This document shows positions 1-39,764 of a stretch of DNA of 64,000 nucleotides, in pieces. The first letter of the stretch is position 1. Every line of letters starts with the position of its first letter. The notes under the pieces were generated by a model. It did not search any database. It worked only from the letters and a program-made list of their open reading frames with translations, and was not told the DNA's origin. The position numbers were made by a program, and so were the translations under genes. The stretch is from the NCBI GenBank assembly GCA_937921525.1, contig CAKZUM010000221.1, positions 9,342 through 73,341 of the forward strand. The letters run 5' to 3'. The stretch is from an uncultured Saprospiraceae bacterium (GTDB lineage Bacteria > Bacteroidota > Bacteroidia > Chitinophagales > Saprospiraceae).

Positions 1-578
1 TTAATTGCCCAACAGCAGAGTTGGATTGTAGTGAATTACAAACTTATCGGGTAGACAAATACGCTACCATTTGTGTAAAGTCGAACCATTACTCTATACC
101 AGAGCAATATGTAGGAAAACGAGTAGATGTGAAATTATATGCAAATCGCTTAGTTGTATACCTCAATCGTCAGCTGGTGGCATCCCATCAGCGAAGACAT
201 ACGAACTCTGAGTGGTACTTAGATTTATCTCACTATCTAAATTCTTTACAACGTAAACCAGGGGCTTTAAAACGGTCTGTAGCATTACAACAAGCTGAAG
301 AAGCATTGAGAAATATTTATTTTCAACACTTCCAAGAACAGCCCAAATCGTTCATTGAATTATTGCACTATCAAAGAAACCACTCCTTGAGTTCTTCTCA
401 AATTCAGCAAGCTATTAATGAGTTATTTCGATTGGGATGCAGGATGATTACGCTTGATAAAATCAAAATTCGCCTAGAACATACCCCTACCGAAGAAGAA
501 ATAATAGAGGAAGGAGAAATTGAACTTTTATCAAGGGAGCAGTTAAAGCAGCTAAGTCAATTATTAGCTGGTAGTTAA
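1..578 (+). CDS. istA: IS21-family transposase IstA, C-terminal part (5' end lies upstream of the window)
   Basis: The frame is open from the window edge. C-terminal IstA-like motifs are present (HYSIP..., HQRRH, HYLNSLQRKPGALKRS). An IstB gene follows 33 nt downstream. Confidence 0.8.
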   Translation, partial: NCPTAELDCSELQTYRVDKYATICVKSNHYSIPEQYVGKRVDVKLYANRLVVYLNRQLVASHQRRHTNSEWYLDLSHYLNSLQRKPGALKRSVALQQAEEALRNIYFQHFQEQPKSFIELLHYQRNHSLSSSQIQQAINELFRLGCRMITLDKIKIRLEHTPTEEEIIEEGEIELLSREQLKQLSQLLAGS

Positions 579-13077: not shown

Positions 13078-15531
13078 ATGGCAATCAAAAAATCACAACT
13101 CTATTCCACACTATGGAAATCCTGCGACGAGCTACGAGGCGGCATGGACGCCTCCCAATACAAAGACTACATTTTAGTACTGCTCTTTGTAAAATACATC
13201 AGCGACAGATATGGGGAGGAACAGGATAGCGTTATCGAAGTACCCAAAGGCAAAAAGCTTGGAGAAGGCGGCAGCTTTAAGGATATGATTTATTGGAAAA
13301 ACAAAGCGGAAATTGGCGATAATCTAAACCTCATTATTGGCCGTCTCGCTAAAGCGAACGACCTAACGGGTATTATCACGGTTGCCAACTTTAATGATCC
13401 CGATAAGCTAGGAAAGGGTAAGGATATGATGGACCGATTGACGAACCTGATTGCTTTATTCGAGAATCCAGCCCTCAACTTTAGTAAGAACCGAGCAGAT
13501 GGGGATGATATATTGGGCGATGCTTACGAGTATTTGATGCGTAACTTCGCTACGGAATCGGGTAAGAGTAAAGGACAATTTTATACGCCTTCTGAAGTAT
13601 CTAGGATATTGGCGAAAGTAGTAGGTATTTCTAAATCAGTTAGTCAAGACCAGACTATTTATGACCCGACTTGTGGCTCTGGATCTTTGTTACTTAAAGC
13701 GGCGGATGAAGCACCTGAAGGTATTACGATCTATGGGCAAGAAAAAGACAATGCTACTCGTGCCTTAGCGGTAATGAATATGTGGTTGCACCAATATCCA
13801 GATGCAGAAATCTGGCAGGACAATACCTTGTCGACTCCGTATTTTAAAAACAAATTAGATGGTTTAGAGACCTTTGATTTTGTGGTGGCTAATCCACCTT
13901 TTTCGGATAAGGCTTGGGGGAATGGGTTTAATCCCGAAGAAGACCCTTATCAGCGGTTTGATAACTATGGGGTACCGCCTTCCAAAAATGGCGATTATGC
14001 TTATTTGCTGCATGTTATTCGGTCCTTGAAAGGTAAAGGTAAAGCGGCAGTCATCTTGCCGCATGGGGTGTTATTTCGGGGGAATGCAGAAGCGACTATT
14101 CGAAAGAATTTGATTAAGACAGGATATATAAAAGGTATTATTGGCTTACCTGCTAACTTGTTTTACGGCACGGGTATTCCTGCTTGTATTATTATTATTA
14201 TTGATAAAGAAGGGGCTGCTGGGCGTAAAGCCATCTTTATCATGGATGCCAGCAAAGGATTTATTAAGGATGGGAATAAAAATCGCTTGCGGGAGCAGGA
14301 CATTCATAAAATTGTAGCCATATTTAATAACCAAGATAAACGAGACTCGAAATATGCTCGCTTAGTATCCCATCAGGATATTGAAAAAAATGAGTACAAT
14401 TTGAATATCCCTCGCTATATAGATGGCCAAGAAATAGAAGATATTCAAGACATTGAAGCACATCTTTTAGGAGGAATACCCAATAGAGATATTGAACAAT
14501 TGGATCACTTTTGGACGGTTTTCCCGAATCTGCGAAAGGTCTTATTGACGAAGAGCGAGCGACCTGATTATAGCCAACTGCGAGTAGGGAAGGAAGCTAT
14601 TAAACCAACTATTTTCTCTAATCCCGAGTTTGTGGGCTTTTTGACGGAAATGAAAGGGATCTTCGCTAGTTGGGATAAAAAGTTTAACCCTTACCTAAAA
14701 GGACTTACTCAAAATTGCCAGCCTAAAAAAGTCATTATACAGATTGCAGAAAAACTATTGGCTGATTATACCGATAAGCCTTTGATTGATAAGTATGATA
14801 TGTACCAGCATCTTATGAATTATTGGGCGGCTACGATGAAGGATGATTGCTATATTATTTCGGAAGATGGATGGGCGGCAGAGATGTATTTAGTGTATAG
14901 CGACAAGGACAAAGAAAAGAAAAAGCCGAAAGGGTGGGATTGTGATTTAGTACCAAAGGAGCTGGTTATTAATCGCTATTTTGATGCGGAAAAGAGAGCA
15001 ATAATAGCATTAGAAACAGAACGGGACGCTTTTATTCAAGCATTGGAAGAACTGGTAGAAGAGCATAGTGGGGAAGATGGACTATTTACGGAAGTGATTA
15101 ATGATAAGGGCAATATCAGTAAAGGAGATGTTGCTAAAAGGATTAAGCTGATTAAAGGCAACAAGGTCGATAGGGAAGAGTTAGCAGTACTACAGCAATG
15201 GATAAAAATAAATAATGCTATTGCTGCTACTAAAAAGAAAATCAAAGAAGCAGAGGAAGATTTAGACGAGAAACTCATCGCTAAATACAAGGTACTGACA
15301 CCCGAAGAAATTAAGGTGCTAGTAGTGGATGATAAATGGATGGCTAGCCTACGCAAGGATATACATGGCGAGATAGACCGAGTGTCGCAACGCTTGACAC
15401 AGCGTATTAGTGACCTTGCGGAGCGGTATGAATATACAATGCCAGCTTTGGCGGATAGAGTAGTAGCGATGAGAAATAAAGTATCTGTTCATCTTAAAAA
15501 AATGGGAATGGTATGGAAATTAAAGAAATGA
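13078..15531 (+). CDS. hsdM: Type I restriction-modification system methyltransferase subunit HsdM (long form, 817 aa)
   Basis: HsdM N-terminus (LWKSCDELRGGMDASQYKDYILVLLFVKYISD), AdoMet motif DPTCGSGSLL, catalytic NPPF (VVANPPFSDKAW), and YNLNIPRYID. About 350 aa of extra C-terminal coiled-coil-like sequence follow. Confidence 0.95.
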   Translation: MAIKKSQLYSTLWKSCDELRGGMDASQYKDYILVLLFVKYISDRYGEEQDSVIEVPKGKKLGEGGSFKDMIYWKNKAEIGDNLNLIIGRLAKANDLTGIITVANFNDPDKLGKGKDMMDRLTNLIALFENPALNFSKNRADGDDILGDAYEYLMRNFATESGKSKGQFYTPSEVSRILAKVVGISKSVSQDQTIYDPTCGSGSLLLKAADEAPEGITIYGQEKDNATRALAVMNMWLHQYPDAEIWQDNTLSTPYFKNKLDGLETFDFVVANPPFSDKAWGNGFNPEEDPYQRFDNYGVPPSKNGDYAYLLHVIRSLKGKGKAAVILPHGVLFRGNAEATIRKNLIKTGYIKGIIGLPANLFYGTGIPACIIIIIDKEGAAGRKAIFIMDASKGFIKDGNKNRLREQDIHKIVAIFNNQDKRDSKYARLVSHQDIEKNEYNLNIPRYIDGQEIEDIQDIEAHLLGGIPNRDIEQLDHFWTVFPNLRKVLLTKSERPDYSQLRVGKEAIKPTIFSNPEFVGFLTEMKGIFASWDKKFNPYLKGLTQNCQPKKVIIQIAEKLLADYTDKPLIDKYDMYQHLMNYWAATMKDDCYIISEDGWAAEMYLVYSDKDKEKKKPKGWDCDLVPKELVINRYFDAEKRAIIALETERDAFIQALEELVEEHSGEDGLFTEVINDKGNISKGDVAKRIKLIKGNKVDREELAVLQQWIKINNAIAATKKKIKEAEEDLDEKLIAKYKVLTPEEIKVLVVDDKWMASLRKDIHGEIDRVSQRLTQRISDLAERYEYTMPALADRVVAMRNKVSVHLKKMGMVWKLKK

Positions 15532-16760
15532 TAAATAAAAATTTGGATTCAGAAGATATTAGTATATGGAAGAAAAGACCATTAAAAGAAGTTAGCCTAA
15601 TGAATGGAAGGATAGGATGGCAAGGATTAAAGAAAGTTGAATTCACTATGAATCCCCATGAGCCTTTTTTGATTACAGGCATGAATTTTAAGGATGGGGC
15701 AATAAGATGGGAAGAGGTATATCGTATTTCTATGAAGAGATACGAAGAAGCAAAACAGATACAACTAGCTAAAGGAGATGTGTTAATGACAAAAGATGGC
15801 ACCATTGGCAAGTTACTTTATGTAGATGATATTCCCTTTCCTAGTTTAGCTTCTTTAAATAGTCATTTACTATTATTTCGACCAATAAGAAATTCTTATG
15901 TGCCTAAATTTCTTTATTATCAACTTGCTTCTAAGCGTTTTGAAGACTTTATTGAATTAAATAAATCAGGGACTACGTTTTTTGGTATATCGCAGGAATC
16001 TGTTGGTAAATATTTGGTTCTTCTTCCTCCTTTAAAAGAACAAAAAGCCATAGCCACCGCCCTCTCCGACATAGACCACTTACTCCAATCCCTCGACCAA
16101 CTCATCGCCAAAAAACGAGCGATCAAACAAGGAGCGATGCAGCAATTGTTGACTCCGCCAGCGGAAGGAGGAAAGCGGTTGGAGGGGTTTAGTGGGGCGT
16201 GGGAGGTGAAGAACTTAGGAGATGTAGTTGAATTTAAGAATGGTAAAGCACATGAAAATAGCATTTCAAAACATGGCCAATTTATCGTAATCAATTCAAA
16301 GTTTGTTTCCACTGAAGGAAAAGTAAAAAAATATTCTAATAATTGTTTGTGCCCTGTATATACAAATGATATAGTTATGGTTATGAGTGATATTCCAAAT
16401 GGAAAGGCAATAGCAAAATGTTTTTATATTGGTGAGGGTAAGCATTATACTCTAAATCAAAGGATATGTGCATTGACATCTAAAAGTTCATCATCCAAAT
16501 TTCTATTTTACCTAATAAATAGACACCCATATTATCTAGGATTTGATGATGGAGTCAAACAAACTAATTTAAGAAGAGATGATGTATTAGATTGTCCTTT
16601 ATCTATGCCTTCAACACTTCAAGAACAAAAAGCCATCGCTCAGGTTCTAACCGACATGGACACCGAAATAGAAATCCTAGAACAACAACGCGCCAAATAC
16701 CAAAGCATCAAGCAAGGGATGATGCAGGAATTATTGACGGGCAAAACGAGGTTGGTATGA
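15513..16760 (+). CDS. hsdS: Type I R-M specificity subunit HsdS (two target-recognition domains)
   Basis: Two conserved helical spacers: LPPLKEQKAIATALSDIDHLL...KRAIKQGAMQQLLT and LQEQKAIAQVLTDMDTEIEILE...KQGMMQELLTGKTRL. The gene overlaps hsdM by 19 nt. Confidence 0.95.
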   Translation: MEIKEMINKNLDSEDISIWKKRPLKEVSLMNGRIGWQGLKKVEFTMNPHEPFLITGMNFKDGAIRWEEVYRISMKRYEEAKQIQLAKGDVLMTKDGTIGKLLYVDDIPFPSLASLNSHLLLFRPIRNSYVPKFLYYQLASKRFEDFIELNKSGTTFFGISQESVGKYLVLLPPLKEQKAIATALSDIDHLLQSLDQLIAKKRAIKQGAMQQLLTPPAEGGKRLEGFSGAWEVKNLGDVVEFKNGKAHENSISKHGQFIVINSKFVSTEGKVKKYSNNCLCPVYTNDIVMVMSDIPNGKAIAKCFYIGEGKHYTLNQRICALTSKSSSSKFLFYLINRHPYYLGFDDGVKQTNLRRDDVLDCPLSMPSTLQEQKAIAQVLTDMDTEIEILEQQRAKYQSIKQGMMQELLTGKTRLV

Positions 16761-17812
16761 GTCTGTTTAATCAGTTATTACGCTTATATGGTGATACGAA
16801 ACCAACAGAAGATTTCTTAACAGAAATTTTTGCCTATTGTTTGTTAGTAGAGTTGGAGATATTAGAAGAATTTTTAATTTTTTTTGATATTACTAAGCAA
16901 GTTGATAAGGAGTATTCTCTAAGGACACAGGTATTTTTAAAAAAATTGCCAGCCTATCAACAACAAACGGATAGTAAACCAGATATGGTGCTTTCATCTA
17001 ATACTAGTATAATTTTCTTTGAAAATAAAGTAGGTGCGGACGAACAAGAAGATCAACTACCACGGTATGCAGAACAATTAGATAATATTACAGGAATAGA
17101 GGAGCGGGTTTTAATTTATATTACCAGAGATTTCGACCCCAAAAACGAAACAGCAATTCTAGAAAAATGTAAACGCCCAATTAAATTTATACAGCTTAGA
17201 TGGTATCAAATTTATTTATTTTTAAAAAAATATACTGACCATTCTATCATCAAAGAATTACTATTTTTTATGAACAAAAATAATCTCTCTTCCAATAATC
17301 AGTTTAGTCCGTTAAATATTCTAGCACTTAACAATTTCTCCAATAGCATAAAAATGATGGATAATGTATTAGATGCTATTATTCCTAAATTTCATCTGTT
17401 AGTGGGTAAGGAAAAAACAGGTAATCCTAGAATGGAATCTTTGAAAGAGAAAGAGAGGTATACGGTTCATTCAAAAAACAATGGAATATGGATAAATATG
17501 GGTTTTTACTTTAATACACCTGACTACCCAAATTATCCTGTTTTGAGATTTGACTTTCAAGAACAAGCAAACAATACAAAGAAACCAGGATTAGTGAAAG
17601 TTTTACAAACCATAGATCAAACAGGAAACAAAGATATGAAATGGAAAGGCTATAACTTAAAGCCTAGCGTTAAATTCACGGGGATTAGATTAGAAAAAAG
17701 TATGCAAGATTTTTTACATCAAGAAGATCATATTATACCAATGCAGGCCTATTTTATGCAATGCCTTGAGGAATATGAAAAGATTAAGCCACAGCTAGAA
17801 CCATTTTTATAA
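16757..17812 (+). CDS. RecB-like PD-(D/E)XK nuclease-family protein embedded between hsdS and hsdR
   Basis: ATGA overlap with the hsdS stop. Motifs are D76 (KPDMVL), E89-x-K91 (IIFFENKV) and Q100-xxx-Y104 (DQLPRY). The ORF-track extension from 16592 overlaps hsdS and is rejected. Confidence 0.75.
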   Translation: MSLFNQLLRLYGDTKPTEDFLTEIFAYCLLVELEILEEFLIFFDITKQVDKEYSLRTQVFLKKLPAYQQQTDSKPDMVLSSNTSIIFFENKVGADEQEDQLPRYAEQLDNITGIEERVLIYITRDFDPKNETAILEKCKRPIKFIQLRWYQIYLFLKKYTDHSIIKELLFFMNKNNLSSNNQFSPLNILALNNFSNSIKMMDNVLDAIIPKFHLLVGKEKTGNPRMESLKEKERYTVHSKNNGIWINMGFYFNTPDYPNYPVLRFDFQEQANNTKKPGLVKVLQTIDQTGNKDMKWKGYNLKPSVKFTGIRLEKSMQDFLHQEDHIIPMQAYFMQCLEEYEKIKPQLEPFL

Positions 17813-17871
17813 TAGACTACTTTCTATAAGCATTTAACCTTTGGCAATTTACCTTTAATCAACCCAAACAC

Positions 17872-20800
17872 ATGAGCAAAGTCGGCGAATCAGAAAGAAT
17901 CACCCAAAACAGAGTCATCCAACTACTGACGTCTACGTCAATGGGCTACCGCTACCTTGGCAATTGGGAAGAACGCCCCAATAACAGCAACATAGAAGAA
18001 GGCATTCTAAAGTCGTGGCTAAAAGAACAAGGGTATAGCCAAAAACTAATAGACAATGCCCTGTACGAATTGCGCAAAGTAGCCAATGAAAAAGGTAAAA
18101 AACTCTATGACCTAAATGAAGCCGTCTATAGTCTACTACGCTATGGCATCAAAATCAAAGAGGCAGCAGGAGAAAACCATCAAACCGTCTGGTTGATAAA
18201 TTGGAACGAACCTCTTAAAAATGATTTTGCGATTGCTGAAGAAGTTACGGTAGAAGGGGAAAACAACAAACGGCCAGATGTAGTTTTTTATGTCAATGGG
18301 ATAGCGGTAGGCGTGATAGAACTAAAAAAAGGTAAAGTAGATGTTACAAAAGGAATAACCCAAAATCTGGATAATCAACAATCTATTTTCATACAATCCT
18401 TCTTTTCAACTATGCAGCTCGTGATGGCGGGCAATGATACACAAGGTATCCGATATGGGACAATCGAAACACCGGGCAAATATTATTTGAGATGGAAAGA
18501 AATCAAAGACCCCAACTACCAACATCTAAGACATGCCGAAATAGATGCACTATGCGCCACCGTTGATTTGGCATTAGATAAAGAATTGATACAACTCTGC
18601 CATCGAGAGCGCCTTATAGAATTGCTGCGAGATTTTTTAGTATTTGACGCAGGGGCTAAAAAACTTTGTCGCCACAATCAATACTTTGGTTTAAAATCAG
18701 CACAAGACTTTGTAAGGAGGCGACAAGGAGGTATTTATTGGCATACACAGGGTAGTGGCAAAAGTCTTTCTATGGTTTGGCTGGCTAAATGGATATTAAG
18801 CACAGTCACCGATAGTCGAGTGCTAATTATTACCGACCGAACAGAGTTAGACGAACAAATAAAAGGCGTGTTCTATGGTGTAGGCGAAACTATTTATCGT
18901 ACTAAATCTGGTACTGATTTAATTAATCAGCTAAACACAAAAGATAAAAATTTGATATGTAGTTTAGTCCACAAATTCGGCAAAAAAAGTAAAAAGGAAG
19001 AAGGCAACTACAAAGACTTCATAGAAGAATTAAAAAGAAGTTTACCCAAGGATTTTAGTGCAAAGGGCGACCTCTATGTATTTATAGATGAATGTCACCG
19101 TACCCAATCTGGCAAGCTGCACAAAGCGATGAAAGAGATACTGGGCAATGCCTTACTATTTGGTTTCACAGGTACACCTTTACTAAAAAAAGACAAGCAA
19201 AATAGCGTCAACATATTTGGACCATTTATCCATAGCTACAAATTTAATGAAGCAGTACAAGATGGAGTAGTATTGGATTTACAATATGAAGCGAGAGACG
19301 TAGATCAGCAAATCACTAATCAAGCAGGGATAGACAAGTGGTTTGAGGCAAAGACGAGTGGATTAAATGACTATGCTAAAACAGAATTAAAAAAGCGTTG
19401 GGGAACGATGCAAAAAGTATTGAGTTCTAAGTCTCGCTTAGAAAAAATAGTTTTTGATATCATCCAAGACTTTGACATGAAGCCCCGTTTGTGTGATGGA
19501 CATGGTAATGCCATACTCGTCTCTAGCAGTATCTATCAAGCTTGTAAATACTATGAATTATTTCAGCTAAATGGTTTTACAAAATGTGCCATTATTACTT
19601 CTTATGTGCCTTCTCCTAGTGATATAAAGGGGGAAAGTACTGGAGAAGCCGCTTTGACCGAAAAGCTGAAGCAATACAATATTTATACAAAAATGCTTAA
19701 CGGGCAAGCCGCAGATGTCTTTGAAAAAGAAGTGAAAAAGACTTTCAAAACACAACCTGCCCAAATGAAATTATTAATTGTGGTAGATAAATTATTGACA
19801 GGTTTCGATGCTCCTTCAGCTACCTATTTATATATAGATAAAACAATGCAAGACCACGGCTTATTTCAAGCAATTTGTCGAGTCAATCGCTTGGATGGAA
19901 TAAGCAAAGAATATGGCTATATCGTTGATTATAAAGACCTTTTTGAGGATATTAAGACCTCTATCACAGACTATACTACAAATGCCTTGGGTAACTATGA
20001 TCCAGAAGATGTAAAAGGTTTATTAAAAAATCGATTAGAAGAAGCCAAAGATCGATTGGACACTTCCTTGGAAACCATTAAAGCGTTTTGTGAACCTGTA
20101 CCCCATCCAAAAGGTAAGGCAGATTATTATGTTTATTTCCATGATGACGAAGCAGTAGGAGAATTTGCTCAAAACTATGCCATGCGTCGGGTAGCATTGT
20201 ACAAGCTAGTCCTTTCCCTTATTAGAGCCTATGCCAATATTGCCAACGAAATGGAAAAAGCAGGTTATAGTAAAAAGGAAGCACAAGAGATAAAAGCAGA
20301 GGTGAAATATTACAAAGAGCTGAGGGAAGAAATAAAAGTCCATAGTGGCGATGCCATTGACTTGAAGTTGTACGAACCAGGTATGCGGCAGTTATTGGAT
20401 ATGTATATCCATGCAGAGCCAAGCACCAAATTATCAGCCTTCGAGAACATGACCCTAATAGAGTTGATAGTAGAACGAGGAGAAGATGCCTTAGAGGACT
20501 TGCCAGAAGATATTCGCAAGAATAAGAAATCAATGGCAGAAACGATAGAGAATAATGTGAGAAGTGCCATCACAGAAGGGGCTCCAACGAATCCAAAGTA
20601 TTACGAAAAACTATCTATTCTTTTAAAAGAATTAGTAGATTTGCGCAAACAAGCGGCAATTGATTACAAGGAGTATTTAGAAAGGATATTAGATTTGGCA
20701 AAGAATGCAGGTAATTCAAGCGGTTCGTCGACATATCCAGATACGCTAAAAACAAAGGCACAACAGGCTTTGTATGATAACTTGGACAATAATGAGTTAT

Positions 20801-20964
20801 TAGCTTTGGCACTAGATAATATTGTAAAAAGTACGAAAAAAAATAAATGGAAGGGGAATAGGATAAAAGAGAAAGCCGTCAAGAATGCCATTAAAAAACA
20901 CATACCAGCAGACAAACTAGAAGGGATATTTGCTATTATTATTGCACAAACAGACTATGACTGA
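17872..20964 (+). CDS. hsdR: Type I restriction enzyme endonuclease/translocase subunit HsdR
   Basis: N-terminal nuclease motif (RPDVVFYVNGIAVGVIELKK), Walker A HTQGSGKSLS, DEAH-type box FIDECHRTQ, and helicase C motifs (TGFDAP, QAICRVNR). Confidence 0.95.
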   Translation: MSKVGESERITQNRVIQLLTSTSMGYRYLGNWEERPNNSNIEEGILKSWLKEQGYSQKLIDNALYELRKVANEKGKKLYDLNEAVYSLLRYGIKIKEAAGENHQTVWLINWNEPLKNDFAIAEEVTVEGENNKRPDVVFYVNGIAVGVIELKKGKVDVTKGITQNLDNQQSIFIQSFFSTMQLVMAGNDTQGIRYGTIETPGKYYLRWKEIKDPNYQHLRHAEIDALCATVDLALDKELIQLCHRERLIELLRDFLVFDAGAKKLCRHNQYFGLKSAQDFVRRRQGGIYWHTQGSGKSLSMVWLAKWILSTVTDSRVLIITDRTELDEQIKGVFYGVGETIYRTKSGTDLINQLNTKDKNLICSLVHKFGKKSKKEEGNYKDFIEELKRSLPKDFSAKGDLYVFIDECHRTQSGKLHKAMKEILGNALLFGFTGTPLLKKDKQNSVNIFGPFIHSYKFNEAVQDGVVLDLQYEARDVDQQITNQAGIDKWFEAKTSGLNDYAKTELKKRWGTMQKVLSSKSRLEKIVFDIIQDFDMKPRLCDGHGNAILVSSSIYQACKYYELFQLNGFTKCAIITSYVPSPSDIKGESTGEAALTEKLKQYNIYTKMLNGQAADVFEKEVKKTFKTQPAQMKLLIVVDKLLTGFDAPSATYLYIDKTMQDHGLFQAICRVNRLDGISKEYGYIVDYKDLFEDIKTSITDYTTNALGNYDPEDVKGLLKNRLEEAKDRLDTSLETIKAFCEPVPHPKGKADYYVYFHDDEAVGEFAQNYAMRRVALYKLVLSLIRAYANIANEMEKAGYSKKEAQEIKAEVKYYKELREEIKVHSGDAIDLKLYEPGMRQLLDMYIHAEPSTKLSAFENMTLIELIVERGEDALEDLPEDIRKNKKSMAETIENNVRSAITEGAPTNPKYYEKLSILLKELVDLRKQAAIDYKEYLERILDLAKNAGNSSGSSTYPDTLKTKAQQALYDNLDNNELLALALDNIVKSTKKNKWKGNRIKEKAVKNAIKKHIPADKLEGIFAIIIAQTDYD

Positions 20965-21682
20965 AACAACACAGCAAATAAATGTAGGGAAGTATGAAAT
21001 AGAGGTGGTTCGAAAAGACATCAAAAATTTACACTTATCCGTACATCCACCAACAGGAAGAATACGAATCGCCACACCTTTAAAAGTAAGTGACGAAGCC
21101 GTGCGCCTATTCGCTGTTTCCAAAATAGCATGGATAAAAAAGAATCAACAAAAGTTAGCTGCCCAGCCTCGCCAAAGTCAACGCCAATATATTTACCGAG
21201 AAACGCATTATTTTTTAGGGCAGGCTTATTTATTAAATCTAGTGCCTCACAAAGGACCTGCAAAAGTGATCTTGAATAATCATCAGGAAATCAATCTTTA
21301 CATTAAAGAGACAGCTACTCGTGAGCAGAAGGAACAAGCGATGGAGGCATGGTATCGAGCGGAGTTAAAAAAACATATTCCGGAATTAATTGCTAAATGG
21401 GAAGGTCGGATGCAAGTACAAGTGGCAGATTGGGGAGTGAAGAAAATGCGTACTAATTGGGGTACATGCAATATAGCAGATCGCCGGATCTGGTTGAATT
21501 TGGAATTGGCGAAGAAGTCGATGCAATGTCTGGAATATGTGGTGGTCCATGAAATGACGCATTTATTGGAGCGACATCACAATAAGAATTTTCTATATTA
21601 TATGGATGGTTTCTTGCCGAATTGGGAGATGATTCGGGAGGAGTTGAATAGTGGGCTTTTGGGGTTTGTGGAGTGGGGGTGA
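20957..21682 (+). CDS. DUF45/YgjP-like (M48-type) zinc metallopeptidase
   Basis: HEMTHLLERHH (HExxH) near the C-terminus, and the WGTCN...I.LN pattern of COG1451. The gene overlaps the hsdR stop by 8 nt. Confidence 0.85.
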   Translation: MTETTQQINVGKYEIEVVRKDIKNLHLSVHPPTGRIRIATPLKVSDEAVRLFAVSKIAWIKKNQQKLAAQPRQSQRQYIYRETHYFLGQAYLLNLVPHKGPAKVILNNHQEINLYIKETATREQKEQAMEAWYRAELKKHIPELIAKWEGRMQVQVADWGVKKMRTNWGTCNIADRRIWLNLELAKKSMQCLEYVVVHEMTHLLERHHNKNFLYYMDGFLPNWEMIREELNSGLLGFVEWG

Positions 21683-22645: not shown

Positions 22646-23344
22646 ATGTCTGAAGATAAAAGATACTCTGTTGTCCTTTTTAATATTTCTCCTCTAAGTT
22701 CAACTTGGATCAAAGAAGTATATAAAAAAATGCAGAAATCTGTTTACTCTGAAGAAGAAGGCGTTGGTTTTAAGAATGTCTACCTACTTAATAATTACTT
22801 GACGGGTACAGTACTTTCCAAAGTGCCTTCTTTCATTCATGAATTTGATTCTAAAAACAGGATATTAAGAAAAAAAGAAATCTTTTTTTTTATAGAAAAC
22901 GATTTTGCAATTGATTCTAAGAATCAAACTCTTGAATTTTTCTGTCCTAATAAAGAAATTACTAGAGTAAAAACTGCTTTGAGAAGTTTCTTACACGAAA
23001 AATCAATCATCTCAGCAAATATTTTTCCTCATAAAATATTGAAAGAATTAGATGAAAGATTTGATTTCTTAAAGGTATGTTCTTTGACTATTAGTCATTA
23101 CAGGCACAGCGAAAAAGTAATAGGTCGTTTTACCTCTAGAGTTGCAGAATACGAAGAAGGAGTGAAACTAATAGCTGAATATGGGGATTATATTTCAAAG
23201 GTCAAATTTATTTTTCATTTAAATGACCAACAAGTAGAAATTGATCTATCGAAAAGTGGAAGAATATCAATAAAATGTTCTGAGAGTATTTTTGATGATA
23301 CATTTCAAATATTAAAAGAGGCTATTAAGAAAAATAATAATTGA
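22646..23344 (+). CDS. Cassette gene 1: hypothetical protein (232 aa), no recognisable family
   Basis: First ORF of a tightly packed three-gene unit. The next ATG lies 2 nt after its stop. Confidence 0.7.
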   Translation: MSEDKRYSVVLFNISPLSSTWIKEVYKKMQKSVYSEEEGVGFKNVYLLNNYLTGTVLSKVPSFIHEFDSKNRILRKKEIFFFIENDFAIDSKNQTLEFFCPNKEITRVKTALRSFLHEKSIISANIFPHKILKELDERFDFLKVCSLTISHYRHSEKVIGRFTSRVAEYEEGVKLIAEYGDYISKVKFIFHLNDQQVEIDLSKSGRISIKCSESIFDDTFQILKEAIKKNNN

Positions 23345-23346
23345 AT

Positions 23347-24270
23347 ATGGCAGAAGACCAAAGCGTAAATGGAGATCGTTGGACTACACAAGCGGCAAAA
23401 TTATTCTCTCGATTAGGATGGAATAAAATAGGAGATTGTAATATAGACGTTCCAGGTGCTGATGGTATTTGTCATGGGATAGATTCTTTATTTACTTATG
23501 AAGATGGCTATTTAAACAAGAAAAAACAAGGAATCTTTTTAGAAGCTAAAAGGTATAAAACTGAAAGCTTTGCTCCTAATAAACTTAGCGGATGGGTACA
23601 AGTCATAAACAATAAAGTAAATGAACTAAAACAATCAAGTCCTTTTCTGGATAAGTATCTCATGAACGACTCAATTAATAATAATGGCGTTCTAGTGATT
23701 TGGTTTCATGATATAGATAACTATAAAGCCTATAAATCTAAATTTCAAAAGGCTTTATTATCTATTTCTACAATTAAAAGAGGTAGTAAAGATTGGACTA
23801 ATAGATTATTTATTATGGATAATTTTATCTTAAGTAGACTAATGTCTCTTTGTAATACCTTAGACACAATAGATAAAGAAAATTTAGATGTAAACTTTTA
23901 CTATGCATCGTCTGTTTCTGATCATGCTGTGGTAGAAAGTAAGATACTCAATTTAGAATTAATGTTTTCCGACTACATATTTATGAAAATTAGAGATCAT
24001 TCCGATGATTCATATACAAAGGAAATAGATACTGTAATATATTATGATGAGTTGAATTTACCCTCCTTTCATAGATTGAAATCAAGTCTAATTCGACATA
24101 ATATGATCAGTAAATCAAACCCTTTACGCTTGTACTTACATAATGATGAAGAAGATGAATCAAGAAAGATACTACCTGAAGTTGAAAAAATATTTTCAGA
24201 CGATGTGAAATCCTTTGAATTGAAGCGTATGAATGTTATTAATAGACTTCCAAATTGGTTAAGAGAATGA
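23347..24270 (+). CDS. Cassette gene 2: protein with N-terminal PD-(D/E)XK restriction-endonuclease-like core (307 aa)
   Basis: AAKLFSRLGW...HGID46SLF...GIFLE66AK68RY matches the D...(D/E)xK core with 19-residue spacing. ATG at 23347; the ORF-track start is TTG at 23341. Confidence 0.7.
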   Translation: MAEDQSVNGDRWTTQAAKLFSRLGWNKIGDCNIDVPGADGICHGIDSLFTYEDGYLNKKKQGIFLEAKRYKTESFAPNKLSGWVQVINNKVNELKQSSPFLDKYLMNDSINNNGVLVIWFHDIDNYKAYKSKFQKALLSISTIKRGSKDWTNRLFIMDNFILSRLMSLCNTLDTIDKENLDVNFYYASSVSDHAVVESKILNLELMFSDYIFMKIRDHSDDSYTKEIDTVIYYDELNLPSFHRLKSSLIRHNMISKSNPLRLYLHNDEEDESRKILPEVEKIFSDDVKSFELKRMNVINRLPNWLRE

Positions 24271-25391
24271 ATCAAAAAGAAAATACTTATAAGTATCCAA
24301 CTAGATACGAACTAAATCTCACTCTAAGCGAACTGACGACTAGAGCATTTGCAGAAAGGCTCGCCAAATCTAAAGGGATTTTTTTTCCTAAAGGTTTACA
24401 ATCTGAAATTGCAGATTCCTTATCATCATTATTTTGGGGACATTCTGATTTAGAGAAAATCAGAAATGCAGCATATAATAGTAAAGTTAAAAAAACACTT
24501 GCAGGTTTTATAGTTAGAACCGAAGACACTGAATTTGATTTACCTAGATTCTTAGATACCTTACGTCGGAATAATACTTTAGGTAAAGATTATGAATTGG
24601 GTCCATTAAGGAAAATGAGTATTCAGGATAGCAAAGAAAACATGTTAAAAGATACTGCGAGAACAACTTATAAATCTAGTTTAAACTACATAAAGAGAAA
24701 ACCAGGAAGAATAGAGTTTTTGAGCGAAGAAATACGACAATTTGATTTTACTATTGAAGAGCGAAACGATAGTGAATGGAAAATTTTAGTAGAATGTCAA
24801 AAATCAACAGACGCTAATGAGATAAAGAAAATTATAGAAACACAAGCACCGAAAAACAGTATAAATATTGATCAATTAGAATACGATTTACTTTCTCCCA
24901 AAGAAACAATTGAGTTTTTTGATAAGCTTGCTGATGTAGGAATGTCAAAGGATTGGAGAATCGAAGACATTAAGTATTTAATATTTAGAAGAGGCGAAGA
25001 CGAAGAAGAGGAAGAAGCTACAGAAGAACAATTATCAGGAATTAGACAAGCAAAACTAGATGGGACTAATCTAAGACAAAATCCATTCGTAAAACAGTCA
25101 GAAAAAAGTGGGTATAGTTTTACTGCAATGACCTATAGATATGAACATAAAACCAAAGGAATAGTTATTCAAATATCTGCGGAATTTAAAATGCGTCCGA
25201 AAGTTTTTGAAATTAGTATCACAAATTACTGGACCCGTGTAGGAATAGGAAGTGACAGCAATATGATAAAAGAAAAGCCACCAATTAGAAAAGAGTTAGA
25301 AATTAAAAGTCATTTTTGGAACAGAGCCAGACAATTATTCAATGAAATAACTGAAACTAAGAAAGAAACAAAAGCTTTATTGAAAATATAG
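24267..25391 (+). CDS. Cassette gene 3: hypothetical protein (374 aa), two halves joined by an acidic linker
   Basis: ATGA overlap with the gene 2 stop (24267-24270). Linker RRGEDEEEEEATEEQ. No family recognised. Confidence 0.7.
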   Translation: MNQKENTYKYPTRYELNLTLSELTTRAFAERLAKSKGIFFPKGLQSEIADSLSSLFWGHSDLEKIRNAAYNSKVKKTLAGFIVRTEDTEFDLPRFLDTLRRNNTLGKDYELGPLRKMSIQDSKENMLKDTARTTYKSSLNYIKRKPGRIEFLSEEIRQFDFTIEERNDSEWKILVECQKSTDANEIKKIIETQAPKNSINIDQLEYDLLSPKETIEFFDKLADVGMSKDWRIEDIKYLIFRRGEDEEEEEATEEQLSGIRQAKLDGTNLRQNPFVKQSEKSGYSFTAMTYRYEHKTKGIVIQISAEFKMRPKVFEISITNYWTRVGIGSDSNMIKEKPPIRKELEIKSHFWNRARQLFNEITETKKETKALLKI

Positions 25392-27305: not shown

Positions 27306-27551
27306 ATGGATATAACAAAGACCTTAACCCAAATATCCAACTTTCGGACAAAGGCAATATTTGCCAATAACCAAGAAATAGAAACCCAATTACAGAAGCT
27401 AATTCCTTTGGCCCTTGCGGTCTATGAACATCGAGCCTGTCCGAATAGTGACGAGTACCAGGAGAAAAGGAAATTGTTTTATGAGGCATTGGAAGAGTTG
27501 CCGAAGGGGTGGCGACCGTTTACTCTTCCTGCGGATACGGGACTGGAGTAG
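27306..27551 (+). CDS. Hypothetical small protein (81 aa); its 3' third is duplicated at 29849-29943
   Basis: ORF. A truncated paralogous copy of its C-terminus (..NSNVYQKHRKTFYEVLEQLLKAWRPITLPV*) lies 2.4 kb downstream. Confidence 0.5.
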   Translation: MDITKTLTQISNFRTKAIFANNQEIETQLQKLIPLALAVYEHRACPNSDEYQEKRKLFYEALEELPKGWRPFTLPADTGLE

Positions 27552-27600
27552 CAGGGGAAAATGGCTATTGGTTTACATTCTCGTAGGAATGAACAAAAAT
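27441..27600 (+). repeat. Direct repeat copy A (~160 bp) flanking the two-gene cassette
   Basis: Aligns by eye at roughly 75-80% identity, with small indels, to 29849-30030. Example segments: GGCGACCG-TTACTCTTCCTG and TAGGAATGAACAAAAATAT. Confidence 0.75.
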
Positions 27601-27603
27601 ATC

Positions 27604-29079
27604 TTATTTTATTTCTTGATGATTATTGATTCCCAATAGAATACTTTGGTTGTTTGATTTGTTGATATTATTAACAGTCAGGTTAATTACATTTCTAGCA
27701 TTTATAGAAGGCTGATTATTCACATTGATGCTCTGAAGTATTTTATTTATCTCTGCTTCAGATATTTTCCCCAGAGGTAATCTAGAAGTTAGTTTTAGGA
27801 AAATAGAAGCTATATCAATCAACGTATCTGTAGCCTTAAGTATTTTATCGGGCAGCGTAGAATTTGTTACAGATTGTTGTTGATTTTTAATTAGATTCCA
27901 AAATCTAGGCTCAGTACTATTGATTAAACCCTCAAATATCTCTCTGGATATGTCATCGTTCGAAAAATAGAAAAACGTTATTTGCGTAGGAGTCCGCTCA
28001 TAAATTTGAATGCCAAAATTCATATGATTTTCACCACTAAAATATCTAGAAAATACTTCTGTTAATTCTAAAAGTAGCTCTTGATTTTCATCCGTTAATA
28101 GAATAGTTTTCATTTCGCTAGATACTCTATATTTAAGAACTCCTGATCCAAAAACGACTTTCTCTTTTTTTTCTAACGACTCTAACAAGTCTCTACTAGG
28201 TTTACTTAAGTTAAAGTAATTTATATTTTCTAATATGACAACACCTTGAATCTTCTCCTCATCTAATAATATTTCCGATACGTTATTAAAAAGCTTTTCT
28301 TTAGGATAAGAAGAGTTTATTTGGAAATTATCTTTAATTTCAGAATTAGTTAATGAGAATCTATTATATGTTTTAAAATCGCTAATTCTGGATTGCTTGT
28401 TAAATATTAGCTTTGTAAATCTCACTTCTTGCTCTGAGTGATTATCTAGTATATCTACTAATGATTTGAATTCACATTTTTCAATATTTAATCCTGTATG
28501 TTCTAATTCAGCAGAAAATTCACAATCATTGATGGAGGTAAACCCTTCAAAAATAGAATTATTAATATCTGTATAGCCGTTAGATTTACTTTTATTAAAA
28601 ATAAATTGATTTCTAAATTTACAGTTTTCAATGTACAAGTGGTCATATTCTATTTCATTAAGGGCTAAGCTTTCAAATTCGCAATCTGCAAAGCGGATAG
28701 GTCCACCAAATTTACTGCCATTAAAATTTACATATTCTCCGAAAATAATATTACTAAAAGTAAAATAATTAATTTTGGAATTTCTAAAATCAACATATCC
28801 ATCTAATTCAAGATTCTTAAAGATAGAAAGAGAACCGTCATGAGGTACTAATATAAATTCTGCAAAACTGAAATGTGGAGTTTTACTTTGAGTATAAGCA
28901 TCTTTAATTATCTTTTCACAGAATTCTTTGAAATGAGCAATTATGCCATTTGCTACTTTAAATTCATAATCCTCACTATGAAATATACACTTTCCATCTT
29001 TATCATGGATAACTTCTTCTACAGTAATAGAACAAGTTAGCGAACTTAATTCTCTTGTAAGATATTGATAGTTGCACAT
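27604..29079 (-). CDS. Pentapeptide-repeat-like protein with unassigned C-terminal domain (491 aa)
   Basis: Residues ~95-210 show the 5-residue periodicity of pentapeptide repeats (FRNSKINYFTFSNIIFGEYVNFNGSKFGGPIRFADCEFESL...). The start codon directly abuts the stop of the upstream gene (TAAATG). Confidence 0.7.
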   Translation of the reverse strand: MCNYQYLTRELSSLTCSITVEEVIHDKDGKCIFHSEDYEFKVANGIIAHFKEFCEKIIKDAYTQSKTPHFSFAEFILVPHDGSLSIFKNLELDGYVDFRNSKINYFTFSNIIFGEYVNFNGSKFGGPIRFADCEFESLALNEIEYDHLYIENCKFRNQFIFNKSKSNGYTDINNSIFEGFTSINDCEFSAELEHTGLNIEKCEFKSLVDILDNHSEQEVRFTKLIFNKQSRISDFKTYNRFSLTNSEIKDNFQINSSYPKEKLFNNVSEILLDEEKIQGVVILENINYFNLSKPSRDLLESLEKKEKVVFGSGVLKYRVSSEMKTILLTDENQELLLELTEVFSRYFSGENHMNFGIQIYERTPTQITFFYFSNDDISREIFEGLINSTEPRFWNLIKNQQQSVTNSTLPDKILKATDTLIDIASIFLKLTSRLPLGKISEAEINKILQSINVNNQPSINARNVINLTVNNINKSNNQSILLGINNHQEIK

Positions 29080-29811
29080 TTAGGAAAGTATTTCTTCACC
29101 TTGTTGGTTAATAAGTAAATCTTTTTGAAAAGTATCGCCTCTATGGTTTTCATAACTTAAGCGAATAAGAAAATCTCTTATTTCTTCTGGGTATTTTTGT
29201 TCACGGTATTTCTTCATTTGGTAACCTGATAGTGTTTTGTTGATTATAAATTTTCCGTTTACAGTAAATGATTTTCCCGCATCAATCGTTCCTAATTTCC
29301 CTGACTTAGATATAGAATTAAATTTTGATCCATTCGGAAAGATTAATTTACAGTTGTAGGCATATTCTTTAGATTCATTCTTTATCTTAATTTCGTAGTT
29401 CCAGCTAAACTCTTTTTCACCTGTCCCCCCAACTTGAAATTTGTAAGAAATAGGTTTTGATGCTGCTCCAAGTGTTCGTAAGGTTATAGTTAATTTAGGA
29501 TCACCTATATTATTATGGACTGTAAGGTTACCTGTATTTTGTATATTTCCTTTACCTCCGATTATTGTCTGTTTAGTTGCTGCTGCTGTGTTGTCAATAA
29601 CTTGTGTGTTACCTTTACCACTGATTATTGTTTGCTTATGCTTGCTTTTTCTCTTAATAAAAAAATTAATAATAAGGGTGATTATCAACACACCAATTCC
29701 TGAGAAAATCCATTCTTTATTTGTTAAAATCCATTCCATTCTATAGGCTTTAAAAGTTGATTGTTTTGGGTTAGCTTCACTAAAATGTATTTCTAAGCTT
29801 CTAATATACAC
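29080..29811 (-). CDS. Small membrane-anchored protein (243 aa ORF; likely 219 aa from the ATG at 29739)
   Basis: N-terminal TM helix (IFSGIGVLIITLIINFFI) followed by KRKSKHK. Internal duplicated motif KQTII(S/G)GKGN(T/I)Q. Immediately precedes the pentapeptide-repeat gene. Confidence 0.65.
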   Translation of the reverse strand: MYIRSLEIHFSEANPKQSTFKAYRMEWILTNKEWIFSGIGVLIITLIINFFIKRKSKHKQTIISGKGNTQVIDNTAAATKQTIIGGKGNIQNTGNLTVHNNIGDPKLTITLRTLGAASKPISYKFQVGGTGEKEFSWNYEIKIKNESKEYAYNCKLIFPNGSKFNSISKSGKLGTIDAGKSFTVNGKFIINKTLSGYQMKKYREQKYPEEIRDFLIRLSYENHRGDTFQKDLLINQQGEEILS

Positions 29812-29848: not shown

Positions 29849-30030
29849 ACTAATAGTAACGTGTACCAGAAGCATAGGAAAACGTTCTATGAAGTATTGG
29901 AGCAGTTGCTGAAGGCCTGGCGACCGATTACGCTTCCTGTGTAGAGGCTAGGGGAGTAGATAGGGCAAATGGCCTATATGACAAGTTGTTTCCTATTTCA
30001 CTTTTTGATAGGAATGAGCAAAAATATAGA
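29849..30030 (+). repeat. Direct repeat copy B (~180 bp) flanking the two-gene cassette; contains a truncated copy of the 27306-27551 gene 3' end
   Basis: See copy A. The translated remnant parallels PNSDEYQEKRKLFYEALEELPKGWRPFTLP. Confidence 0.75.
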
Positions 30031-38327: not shown

Positions 38328-39764
38328 TTAATATAAAGCGATTGAATTTGGCTTATAGTCACTTATTAAAATCATTATTGAGTCAGAAGAAATTTCTCTA
38401 AAATCGTCATTTTTTTCATACAGGATCCTTTCTATATCTGTATTAGAAAATACATAGTTTTGATAGCCTCCAAATCTCCCGAAGTAATAATCAAATCTGC
38501 GATGGTCGTTTATAATTCCTTCAATTATGTATGCAATTCTAAAATCCCCATTTTCGTTAATTTCATTAAATTTCAATTCACCTAATTCAGTATTTTCATA
38601 TCCGATACTATCCAAAACAGCAGAGAGTACAGGGATATTAAATGTAAGTTTCTTAGAATTTGATGTTAACTCAACTATTTCAATATTTTGTTTAGTTGTA
38701 TCACTCCAAAAATTTATAATTCCATTTTTAAAGTCATAAGTATATCTTTCTAGGTCCAGTTCAATAATATCTTCAAAAAGCATAATATTATCAGTTGTTA
38801 TCATTTTTGGACTTCCAAGTTTATCCCTAACATACTGCATATTGGTTCCAACATCAAAGTCATTTAGAATATCAGAATATAATTCTTTGATGGGAGGATT
38901 AGTATTAAAAACTAAATTTGCTGGATTAGAAAAATTTGAAGTATTTGTAATAACTGTATTTTCTTTTGATAAGCTATCTTTTTTATTTGGTTCGTTAAGA
39001 GCTTTTATGACTCCAAAAATGATGGTAAAGCAAACAGTAATAACAGCACAGATAGCTAATACAATTTGAGAAATATTACTTTTAGGTCTCCTTGATTCTT
39101 TTAATCCTTTATCGGTATTAGTCAATTCTAATCTTTCTTCTAGTGATGTTATAATGTTTTCATAGTATTTTTGCGTATTCAAAATAGCTGCGTATCTAAA
39201 TTCTACGAGTGTTAGTTGCCAATATAAGCCCGGCATATCTTTTTTAGAAAAAACGGCTTCTGCTATTGGTAATATTCTTTTATTAAAAGTAGTTTTCTCT
39301 TTAAATGTTATATCTGTTATTATAGGTTTATATTTATTAATTATTCTCCTCAGCTTCAAAATTAGCTTTTTTGCATCTTCATCGTTTAGATTTAAACTAT
39401 CGTCATGAAATTCTATTAGTTTACCTGATACGATTGTCTCTAGGTTAGAAAGATGTGCTATTACTTGTCCATAAAAATTAGTCCTTTTATGATTATTTTC
39501 CTGTTCAATACCTATCATTTCGAAAAAATAAAATTCAGGGTATAAATCATCTAAGAGTATGAATGGTTGAATGAAATCTTCTATAATTTGAAATTGATTC
39601 CAGATATTTGGATATAAGGTGTTTGATTTTAAAAGTTGATTATGCCTTTCTAAAGTTAATATTCCTATCATGTAACTTTTGTTTTCTAATATTAAGTAAA
39701 AAAATGAAACGACTGATAAGATAATGAATACTAGAAAAAAATCAGGATAAGTTCCCCTACCCAA
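38328..39764 (-). CDS. Hypothetical membrane protein (AT-rich orphan)
   Basis: ORF with a central TM helix (IVLAICAVITVCFTIIFGVI). The ORF-track start is TTG at 39764, overlapping the kinase stop. The first ATG is at 39671. Confidence 0.6.
   Translation of the reverse strand: MGRGTYPDFFLVFIILSVVSFFYLILENKSYMIGILTLERHNQLLKSNTLYPNIWNQFQIIEDFIQPFILLDDLYPEFYFFEMIGIEQENNHKRTNFYGQVIAHLSNLETIVSGKLIEFHDDSLNLNDEDAKKLILKLRRIINKYKPIITDITFKEKTTFNKRILPIAEAVFSKKDMPGLYWQLTLVEFRYAAILNTQKYYENIITSLEERLELTNTDKGLKESRRPKSNISQIVLAICAVITVCFTIIFGVIKALNEPNKKDSLSKENTVITNTSNFSNPANLVFNTNPPIKELYSDILNDFDVGTNMQYVRDKLGSPKMITTDNIMLFEDIIELDLERYTYDFKNGIINFWSDTTKQNIEIVELTSNSKKLTFNIPVLSAVLDSIGYENTELGELKFNEINENGDFRIAYIIEGIINDHRRFDYYFGRFGGYQNYVFSNTDIERILYEKNDDFREISSDSIMILISDYKPNSIALY

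Follow-up and report, generated by a model that had tools for sequence, protein, structure and literature searches.

Amyloid or prion-like templating is an established immune switch in fungi and animals. In filamentous fungi, the HET-S/NWD2 pair with its HRAM motifs is encoded by adjacent sensor and effector genes, whereby the effector possesses a hydrophobic N-terminal helix and the G/N/Q-rich motif is present as 21-residue pseudo-repeats, of which the effector holds two and the receptor a single one. The bacterial cases known so far all involve, to our knowledge, receptors that are NLR-like or of the TPR-GreAB-C-PIN class, together with Bell-type effectors. Both Bell/BASS-NLR and Bab/Agp (BASS11) are two-gene effector/receptor pairs, in which a short motif is the sole similarity between the partners and the small effector carries an N-terminal hydrophobic helix. 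In Bab/Agp, an abortive infection system of E. coli, an amyloid motif common to both partners allows the TPR-GreAB-C-PIN sensor to switch on a small protein whose N-terminal helix is hydrophobic (bioRxiv 10.1101/2024.11.07.622273). Here, we analysed a stretch of 64,000 nucleotides (the window) from an uncultured Saprospiraceae bacterium (GenBank assembly GCA_937921525.1, contig CAKZUM010000221.1, positions 9,342 to 73,341 of the forward strand), which contains a pair of minus-strand genes for a small membrane protein and a pentapeptide-repeat protein. In our estimate, the chances are about even that this pair forms a two-component conflict module, most likely for anti-phage abortive infection, whose partners are coupled by a HET-s/BASS-like templating motif.

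The small membrane protein of 219 residues is encoded at 29080..29739 (minus strand), from the ATG at 29739 to the TAA at 29080–29082, and the 491-residue pentapeptide-repeat protein, the putative sensor, at 27604..29079 (minus strand), with its ATG at 29077–29079 and its stop at 27604–27606; both are taken from the list of open reading frames (ORFs) and the sequence. The two ORFs abut exactly, with TCC TAA ATG on the minus strand (TAA 29082–29080, ATG 29079–29077), as an earlier note on this DNA, made by a model from its letters, had read the junction. In an orthologous pair (locus L004), whose proteins are 66% (small) and 54% (large) identical to those of the window, the stop and start codons share one nucleotide as TAATG. 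A longer version of the small gene can be read from a GTG at 29811 (29080–29811, minus strand, 243 residues), but its 24-residue extension is probably untranslated, since the N-termini of the homologues P0004 and P0005 (219 residues) and P0006 (205 residues), which read MEW or MNW, all coincide with ATG 29739. These three share 74%, 66% and, for the distant P0006, 34% identity with the small protein. Homologues elsewhere span 34–74% identity for the small protein and from 54% down to 21–25% for the large one, and judged by their sequences both ORFs are genuine genes.

The feature on which the comparison with amyloid systems turns is a short G/N/Q-rich motif that occurs once in the sensor and twice in its partner. 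The sensor copy, NQSILLGINNHQ, comprises residues 477–488 (27616..27651, minus strand) and ends three residues before the end of the protein at residue 491. In the small protein, copy R1, KQTIISGKGNTQ, was located by DNA repeat family D2 and a motif scan at residues 35–46 (29602..29637, minus strand), and copy R2, KQTIIGGKGNIQ, at residues 56–67 (29539..29574, minus strand), starting exactly 21 residues after R1. The duplication can be seen in the DNA itself, where 29539–29575 and 29602–29638 are 81% identical at a spacing of 63 nucleotides (21 residues). The R1 region (residues 36–47) gives the best match of the small protein to a hidden Markov model (HMM) of sensor C-termini, while in R2 residues G62, N65, I66 and Q67 are invariant across four homologues. 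The earlier note had recognized the internal duplication, which stands, but not its sharing with the C-terminus of the partner, which is the key feature. In AlphaFold2 (AF2) models, the motif segment has a pLDDT below 50, which predicts disorder for the monomer. This low pLDDT, the composition and the 21-residue period are the only hints at prion-like behaviour, and indirect ones.

The same layout was found at the level of the family, of which 113 core representatives were examined. In sensors consisting of the core only, the last ~20 residues hold N-Q-(T/S/N)-I-(I/L)-(L/F)-G-(I/V)-(G/N)-N-x-Q; at least 17 of the 113 representatives end in the strict pattern Q-x-[ILV]-[ILV]-x-[GS]-x-x-[NDS]-x-Q, and others in looser variants. 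Their partners bear two copies just past the transmembrane (TM) region, and the 21-residue spacing is present in three unrelated partner families, with copies starting at residues 35 and 56 in P0004 as in the window (and, judged by inspection, in L004), at 57 and 78 in L099, and at 26 and 47 in L097; the spacing in L094 is 24 residues. When an HMM of 16 sensor C-termini, excluding that of the window, was searched against ~3,080 sequences, six partners were among the top 11 distinct non-sensor matches, each at its post-TM repeat, and the C-terminus of the window sensor reached 15.0 bits against this HMM of the other sensors. A non-circular test in the opposite direction used an HMM built from 14 small-protein repeats only, searched against the 113 core proteins and ~3,070 six-frame ORF decoys (3,187 sequences in total). 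Past the training sequences, core proteins ranked top, with 18 in the top 50, and 17 of these 18 matches lay at most 13 residues from the C-terminus. The window sensor itself scored 6.2 bits at residues 476–491, its best match, and ranked about 14th among the distinct non-training sequences. Pairwise Smith-Waterman tests of motif sharing came to p = 0.15 with the window pair and to p = 0.73 with L004; the segment that they picked was NLTV(H/N)N, a resemblance that was not relied on.

The linkage of the sensor to membrane proteins also extends beyond the window. Tail-less sensors are tightly linked to genes for small membrane proteins at eight places, four of which come from clearly different lineages, and these partners are of three or four unrelated kinds. 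The 1-TM beta-sandwich partner lies upstream of the sensor gene in the window and in L004, and in L003 downstream of a family paralogue at a distance of 180 nucleotides. In L093, L094 and L099 the downstream gene encodes a ~100-residue protein with two hydrophobic segments, in L097/L098 the partner is a 1-TM plus EAD11 protein, and in L091 a multi-TM protein. Sensor and partner genes overlap or are separated by a gap of a few nucleotides in L091, L093, L094, L097 and L099. The gene neighbourhoods of tail-less members, a check put forward by the earlier note, hence agreed with a membrane partner at these eight places but not everywhere, as the neighbour is a paralogue in L092 and a 151-residue non-membrane protein in L095/L096. 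Synteny of the pair was likewise found in part, namely in L004, in L003 and with the other membrane partners, while one distant homologue of the small protein (L002) stands alone. In L092 (795–2743), two Zn-knuckle/pentapeptide paralogues are arranged in tandem, the second beginning 24 nucleotides on and ending at the contig edge. Beside the sensor/2-TM pair of L093 (3868–7322), there is a mix of defence-type and nucleotide-modification genes, i.e. a ThsB-type TIR, Nmad2, DUF1599, thymidylate synthase and HMUDK_hel.

The N-terminal module of the small protein is more widespread than the pair. A metagenome scan returned more than 185 loci encoding its first 30–80 residues, joined to many different C-terminal parts. 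The module often forms a stand-alone gene of 56–73 residues, in whose product a TM helix and a basic stretch lead to a G/N/Q-rich tail, and which overlaps or abuts a larger downstream gene; such tiny genes were found in L010, L013, L017, L019-L021, L023, L024, L026, L027, L029-L034, L051, L055, L056, L060-L064, L067 and L079. Their downstream partners include ~350-residue proteins that are weakly AbiLii-like, a NACHT protein (L031) and proteins of ~1,270 residues (L030, L055, L062), of which that of L030 bears HTH_upstream_double_PIN and PIN-TPR-GreABC domains, whereas fused versions of the module carry TPR arrays. Smith-Waterman alignment, set against 500 composition-preserving shuffles, showed that the tail of the tiny gene product resembles the N-terminus of the downstream partner in 24 of the 26 non-redundant pairs (p < 0.01), with a median z of 7.1. 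Variant motifs look closest within cognate pairs, e.g. in L067, L060, L031 and L030, a comparison not scored against non-cognate pairs. A motif shared between tail and N-terminus is the genomic signature by which amyloid signalling motifs of fungi and bacteria have been defined (bioRxiv 10.1101/2020.01.06.895854). By this signature, the tiny-gene loci look like a large family of amyloid-signalling-type pairs, of which we found no description. The pairing of the module with a TPR-GreAB-C-PIN protein parallels the experimentally validated Bab/Agp.

Two further occurrences of the module were observed. In many gut assemblies, a family of ~225–253-residue proteins joins the membrane module to G/N-rich repeats and a beta-sandwich-like domain (weak Cep192_D5 match), its gene usually lying just downstream of a 180-aa gene (L038, L041-L053, L058, L066, L073, L080-L085; human-gut and other metagenomes). 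On the Vibrio parahaemolyticus plasmid pVPTW011 (NZ_CP133902.1; L100 4989-5885), the module is 41.8% identical over residues 4–58 and forms the N-terminus of a 298-residue protein annotated as a helix-turn-helix (HTH) regulator, surrounded by an apparent integron-type array of small unrelated cassettes.

In the window protein, this module reads MEWILTNKEWIFSGIGV and leads into the TM helix at about residues 9–30 (29650..29715, minus strand; hydropathy window 9–27, AF2 helix 14–30), which is followed by the basic KRKSKHK. Its conserved consensus is M-x-W-I-x-x-N-K-E-W-I-F-S-G-I-G-V. Based on the KRKSKHK segment and the positive-inside rule, the N-terminus would be outside and the rest of the protein, including both motif copies, in the cytoplasm. 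The single TM helix, the KRKSKHK segment and the duplicated KQTII(S/G)GKGN(T/I)Q were all described by the earlier note and are all present (hydropathy 9–27; DNA repeat 81%), and the beta-rich C-terminal domain that it expected was modelled by AF2 as an immunoglobulin-like beta-sandwich at about residues 83–219 (29083..29493, minus strand; pLDDT ~70–84). Foldseek, one of the checks proposed there for both proteins, returned weak matches for this domain, with TM-scores mostly below 0.5 (ApaG, TRAP subunits, the luminal domain of TMEM106B, adaptin ear), and nothing significant for the 491-residue protein, for which the query was a low-confidence model. NCBIfam likewise gave a weak ApaG match to the small protein. 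These matches point to no enzymatic fold; the predicted beta-sandwich could hold the effector inactive or aid its oligomerisation.

Over its first 55 residues, the small protein matches PDC-M43A (positions 1–55, E = 6.7e-9), a model of PDC-M43, which is an untested candidate system of PADLOC. What defines PDC candidates is that they lie embedded in known defence systems (bioRxiv 10.1101/2024.01.29.577857). The likeness is confined to the N-terminal module, and membership in PDC-M43 was rejected, as only positions 1–55 of 203 match and the 491-residue protein matches no PADLOC model.

The 491-residue protein starts with a C2-C16-C31-H34 knuckle (MCNYQY...C...GKCIFHS; 28975..29079, minus strand), which is invariant in distant relatives and includes the Cys/His segment CIFHSEDYEF that had been noticed before. 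In seven distant relatives, M1, C2, Y6, C16, G29, C31, F33, H34 and S35 are invariant; the family N-terminus can be written as MC(N/K)(Y/H)xY...C...D..G.C(I/L)FHS, and the signature C-[ILV]-[FY]-H-S is found in ~90 of the 113 representatives. This conservation suggests that the CCCH knuckle binds a metal, presumably zinc. It is followed by a pentapeptide-type right-handed beta-helix at about residues 85–310 (28150..28827, minus strand; AF2 strands, pLDDT 65–90), which exceeds the ~120 residues of pentapeptide-repeat periodicity given in the earlier note. Against the Pfam model Pentapeptide_3 (PF13576), the window protein scores 26.3 bits and stays just below the cut-off of 27 bits, and most of the relatives checked reach 28–54 bits; it is a pentapeptide member by fold and family and a borderline one by score. 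The third part, a conserved domain at about residues 272–440 followed by helices (27760..28266, minus strand), was defined from alignment A5 of 22 relatives, with low AF2 confidence, and has the consensus FEN.N...L..LEK..KV.IG.GC.KYR...F..YF...G.NLG.EI.ER....I.FFYF.D. Profile searches of Pfam and PDB gave no credible match for it, in agreement with the C-terminal domain having been left without assignment in the earlier note; matches to influenza HA2 and the La domain were spurious.

An exhaustive HMMER profile search with this protein returned 380 proteins at E ≤ 1e-3 and 147 at E ≤ 1e-30. Matches confined to the nuclease tail of the co-query P0002 are included among the 380 and make up 35 of the 150 best listed; the family comprises more than 100 clusters at 50% identity. 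Word-indexed searches with the 491-residue protein gave 2 and 5 matches only, missing even L003 and L004, and the alignments used as AF2 input were shallow, with 2 and 4 sequences. In the phage and plasmid collections, no homologue of the 491-residue protein was found. Beyond the pentapeptide repeat and the partial PDC-M43A match, Pfam, NCBIfam and PADLOC hold no model for either protein family, and a literature search found no paper describing them.

The best Foldseek matches of the low-confidence sensor model in the PDB are the pentapeptide proteins AlbG and 6fls, both non-significant. Qnr, MfpA and AlbG are pentapeptide proteins that act as DNA mimics. This raises the question of whether the two genes are unrelated neighbours or serve housekeeping, e.g. 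as a Qnr/MfpA-like topoisomerase-protecting DNA mimic beside an unrelated envelope protein. Such an explanation, which we regard as very improbable, would draw on AlbG being the top structural match, on the VIT1, phosphatidylserine decarboxylase and metal-efflux genes of one flank and on the ability of the small protein to stand alone. It is difficult to reconcile with the start/stop coupling, which is kept in L004, with the motif shared by both proteins and with the rare and patchy occurrence of the family. Furthermore, although Qnr, MfpA and AlbG possess the same right-handed quadrilateral pentapeptide beta-helix, they are ~200-residue stand-alone dimers, whereas the window family adds the CCCH knuckle, a ~170-residue domain, the terminal motif and swappable tails. 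A Qnr-like DNA-mimic housekeeping role was rejected on this architecture and on the behaviour of the family. The earlier note had named a mainly housekeeping context of the homologues, or a documented unrelated function, as findings that would speak against its proposal; the homologues are not found chiefly in such contexts, and none of them has a documented unrelated function.

Among the 113 representatives, 53 extend past the core by tails of 70–270 residues, and the Pfam domains in these tails include CHAT (a cluster of 12), TIR/TIR_2 (3), PNP_UDP_1, LytTR and EAD11, together with weakly matching PD-(D/E)xK. A further 19 representatives carry ~100-residue tails ending in a hydrophobic Gly-rich helix. 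CHAT occurs in fused and in separate form: it is fused to the core in L005 and encoded by a separate upstream gene in L006; among the genome loci, the Blastocatellia homologue has the fused CHAT and the Bacteroidota homologue the separate CHAT-like gene directly upstream. The neighbour of the Saprospiraceae homologue, judged by eye from its sequence, combines an NB-ARC-like P-loop region with TPR-like repeats, and P0033 is flanked by an LRR-Roc-COR protein on one side and an EAD11-TIR protein on the other. The contig with P0002 opens in Illumina adapter sequence (L001 1-60, ..ACACTCT.TCCCTACACGACGCTCTTCCGATCT). Because it starts with the adapter, the upstream context of P0002 is an assembly artefact and uninformative on a partner gene.

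Kaur et al. (PMC7159879) describe conflict systems that are characterised by a constant core with a variable effector. Among these, the EACC1 two-gene system (Kaur et al. 2020, PMC7159879) resembles the window pair in having a single-TM component with small residues in its helix as the 5′ gene, a variable 3′ partner and a repertoire of EAD, CHAT and TIR domains. It differs in that its own 3′ gene has a constant caspase domain, which that of the window lacks, and no shared motif is described for it. Membership in EACC1 was rejected, since neither window protein has an EACC1 or caspase match in Pfam. Hailong HalA was also rejected as an assignment for the 491-residue protein, as the match of 17.6 bits is far below the NCBIfam cut-off of 250 and limited to beta-helix residues 96–174, i.e. 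repeat noise; an ORC1-type match to the same protein was repeat noise as well.

Set beside the systems introduced above, the window pair has adjacent and co-oriented genes, a hydrophobic N-terminal helix in the effector, and a shared motif that stands at the receptor terminus according to the family-level HMMs. With HET-S/NWD2 it additionally has in common the G/N/Q-rich character of the motif and the arrangement of 21-residue pseudo-repeats, two on the effector and one on the receptor. In contrast to NWD2, the window sensor is a pentapeptide-repeat protein with no NTPase and with its motif at the C-terminus. In contrast to HET-S, the effector motifs directly follow a pre-formed TM helix and precede a beta-sandwich, and the copies are contiguous (21 residues from start to start), while those of HET-S are split by a 15-residue loop. 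The likeness to Bell/BASS-NLR and Bab/Agp includes the two-gene organisation, and the membrane module of the window also occurs upstream of TPR-GreAB-C-PIN (Agp-type) and NACHT proteins with an N-terminal motif. The differences are that the window effector lacks the Bell/Babybell helical domain and starts with MEWIL.NKEWIFSGIGV instead of the ‘MEPIS’ region of Bab, and that receptor class and motif position differ. The window receptor shows no NLR/STAND NTPase, TPR or PIN in Pfam and NCBIfam. An Agp-like query gave distant plasmid homologues only, none with a small upstream gene.

We favour a sensor/effector module because of the effector swapping, the linkage to membrane genes, the shared motif, the PDC-M43A match and the restriction-modification (R-M) operon nearby. 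The proposal of the earlier note, a sensor/effector pair or an abortive infection module, thereby gains computational support on these same points. In the mechanism we propose, the 491-residue cytoplasmic protein would be sensor or scaffold, with the CCCH knuckle, the beta-helix, the family domain and one C-terminal G/N/Q-rich motif, and the 219-residue protein would be the executioner, with a single-pass membrane module, two motif copies and a cytoplasmic beta-sandwich. An infection cue would alter the state or oligomerisation of the sensor, upon which its C-terminal motif, now exposed or ordered, would take a cross-beta, beta-solenoid-like fold. This fold could template both motif copies of the membrane protein into a stack, so that the TM modules cluster and the membrane is permeabilised or depolarised, leading to abortive infection. 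That the beta-helix serves as bait for a phage DNA-binding protein, in a ‘DNA mimic’ role, is a guess.

A broader claim, to which we give somewhat less than an even chance, is that these loci represent a new prokaryotic family of amyloid-type motifs with HET-s architecture outside the NLRs. Here, a Zn-knuckle/beta-helix sensor, possibly a DNA-mimic bait, would switch on a single-helix membrane killer that is shared across NACHT, TPR-GreAB-C-PIN, AbiLii-like and TPR sensors in diverse, mostly uncultured bacteria. If the sensor/effector pair is indeed coupled by templating, the principle would reach a receptor class free of NTPases and a much simpler membrane effector, and the 1+2 geometry of HET-s with 21 residues would have arisen, or been kept, in bacteria. 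This reading of the pair defines two protein families and a short mutable motif, and provides an annotation handle on hundreds of easily overlooked membrane genes of 56–73 residues.

Several observations weigh against templating by a shared motif. Firstly, the sensor is not an NLR/STAND protein and its motif is C-terminal rather than N-terminal, while the effector motifs are internal with a folded domain after them, although they are terminal in the known systems. A Pfam scan at E ≤ 1 gave no match to HET-s_218-289 (PF11558), HRAM or another motif family. For the window pair alone, Smith-Waterman alignment of small-protein residues 31–82 with the sensor C-terminus yielded p ~ 0.15 and picked a different segment, and the HMM scores for the motif match of the window are just 5–6 bits. 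Since this alignment by itself is non-significant, the argument for a shared motif depends on the pattern across the family. There are few partner sets, some of them related to each other, and they reduce to three independent families of small proteins; as most contigs are short, independent contexts of sensor and partner are scarce. AF2 confidence is low outside the beta-helix and the beta-sandwich. In addition, the distant homologue P0006 (L002) carries one motif copy and has no partner within 750 nucleotides; standing alone with a single copy, it suggests that the small protein may work without the 491-residue sensor. It sits in an element with PrimPol/VapE, EndoU and HsdM, with non-coding DNA downstream. 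Finally, a similar G/N/Q-rich segment precedes fused effector domains in cis, for which reason the segment could be a generic linker or oligomerisation segment.

The last point leads to the explanation that the genes do form a sensor/effector defence pair, but that the motif is an ordinary interaction or oligomerisation segment or a flexible linker acting without amyloid templating, whereby the small protein anchors or receives the sensor at the membrane. For example, the motif could add beta-strands to the end of the pentapeptide helix with its 20 residues per turn. We consider this possible, though rather doubtful. G/N/Q-rich segments also occur in cis, linking the core to fused tails such as CHAT or TIR, where templating between proteins is unneeded; the effector motifs are internal instead of terminal, and the 21-residue spacing is near the 20-residue coil of pentapeptide (Rfr-fold) helices. 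What an ordinary segment accounts for less readily is that the 1+2 layout with its 21-residue spacing recurs across three unrelated partner families, that the same membrane module takes part in canonical C-terminus/N-terminus motif pairs, Agp-type partners included, and that disorder is predicted for the motif region of the monomer.

The surroundings of the gene pair suggest insertion or exchange of the cassette. The pair is strongly AT-rich, as the earlier note had remarked, with a GC content of 0.269 over 28001–29000 versus ~0.35 window-wide. The bracketing by direct repeats was confirmed, with 27444–27565 and 29852–29973 being 76% identical and 27572–27602 and 29997–30027 81% identical. The left copy (27444..27602, plus strand) covers the 3′ end of an 81-residue gene (27306–27551, plus strand) plus spacer, and the right copy (29852..30027, plus strand) is a truncated, stop-containing remnant of the 3′ end of a paralogue of this gene (..YQKHRKTFYEVLEQLLKAWRPITLPV*). 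The bracketing repeat is thus formed by the intact 81-residue gene together with the paralogous 3′ fragment at 29852–29950 (plus strand). Rather than a target-site duplication, it resembles the trace that would be left when a cassette is inserted or exchanged through recombination, here at the 81-residue gene.

These features could also belong to selfish or mobile-element cargo, e.g. an addiction pair of the toxin/antitoxin kind, or a membrane protein for superinfection exclusion together with a regulator, rather than infection-triggered suicide. An AT-rich cassette bracketed by diverged repeats would suit such cargo, as would the solitary P0006 in its PrimPol/VapE, EndoU and HsdM element and the Vibrio plasmid cassette, in which the membrane module is fused to an annotated HTH regulator. 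Nevertheless, fused CHAT, TIR, PNP_UDP_1 and EAD11 tails fit regulated conflict systems and not antitoxins, and the phage and plasmid collections gave no match to the sensor, which renders this explanation improbable in our view.

A promoter and terminator scan returned counts no higher than expected from shuffles, and no Rfam family was found in the window. As the earlier note had it, the cassette shares its stretch with an R-M operon, which is of type I and lies upstream on the plus strand at 13078–21682, encoding HsdM, HsdS, an embedded PD-(D/E)xK protein, HsdR and a YgjP-like peptidase. The PD-(D/E)xK (PDDEXK_4) gene is located between hsdS and hsdR (16592–17812, plus strand) and matches the PADLOC candidate PDC-S26 (E = 1.4e-8). 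Three overlapping genes at 22646–25391 (plus strand; 232, 309 and 378 residues), without a match in Pfam, NCBIfam or PADLOC, separate the R-M operon from the cassette. The other flank of the cassette comprises VIT1, phosphatidylserine decarboxylase and a heavy-metal efflux/two-component block. In this block, a 478-residue protein with an ETEC_3214 domain (38328–39764, minus strand; NCBIfam E = 1.2e-10) is encoded between a CzcA-type efflux pump and the heavy-metal two-component genes.

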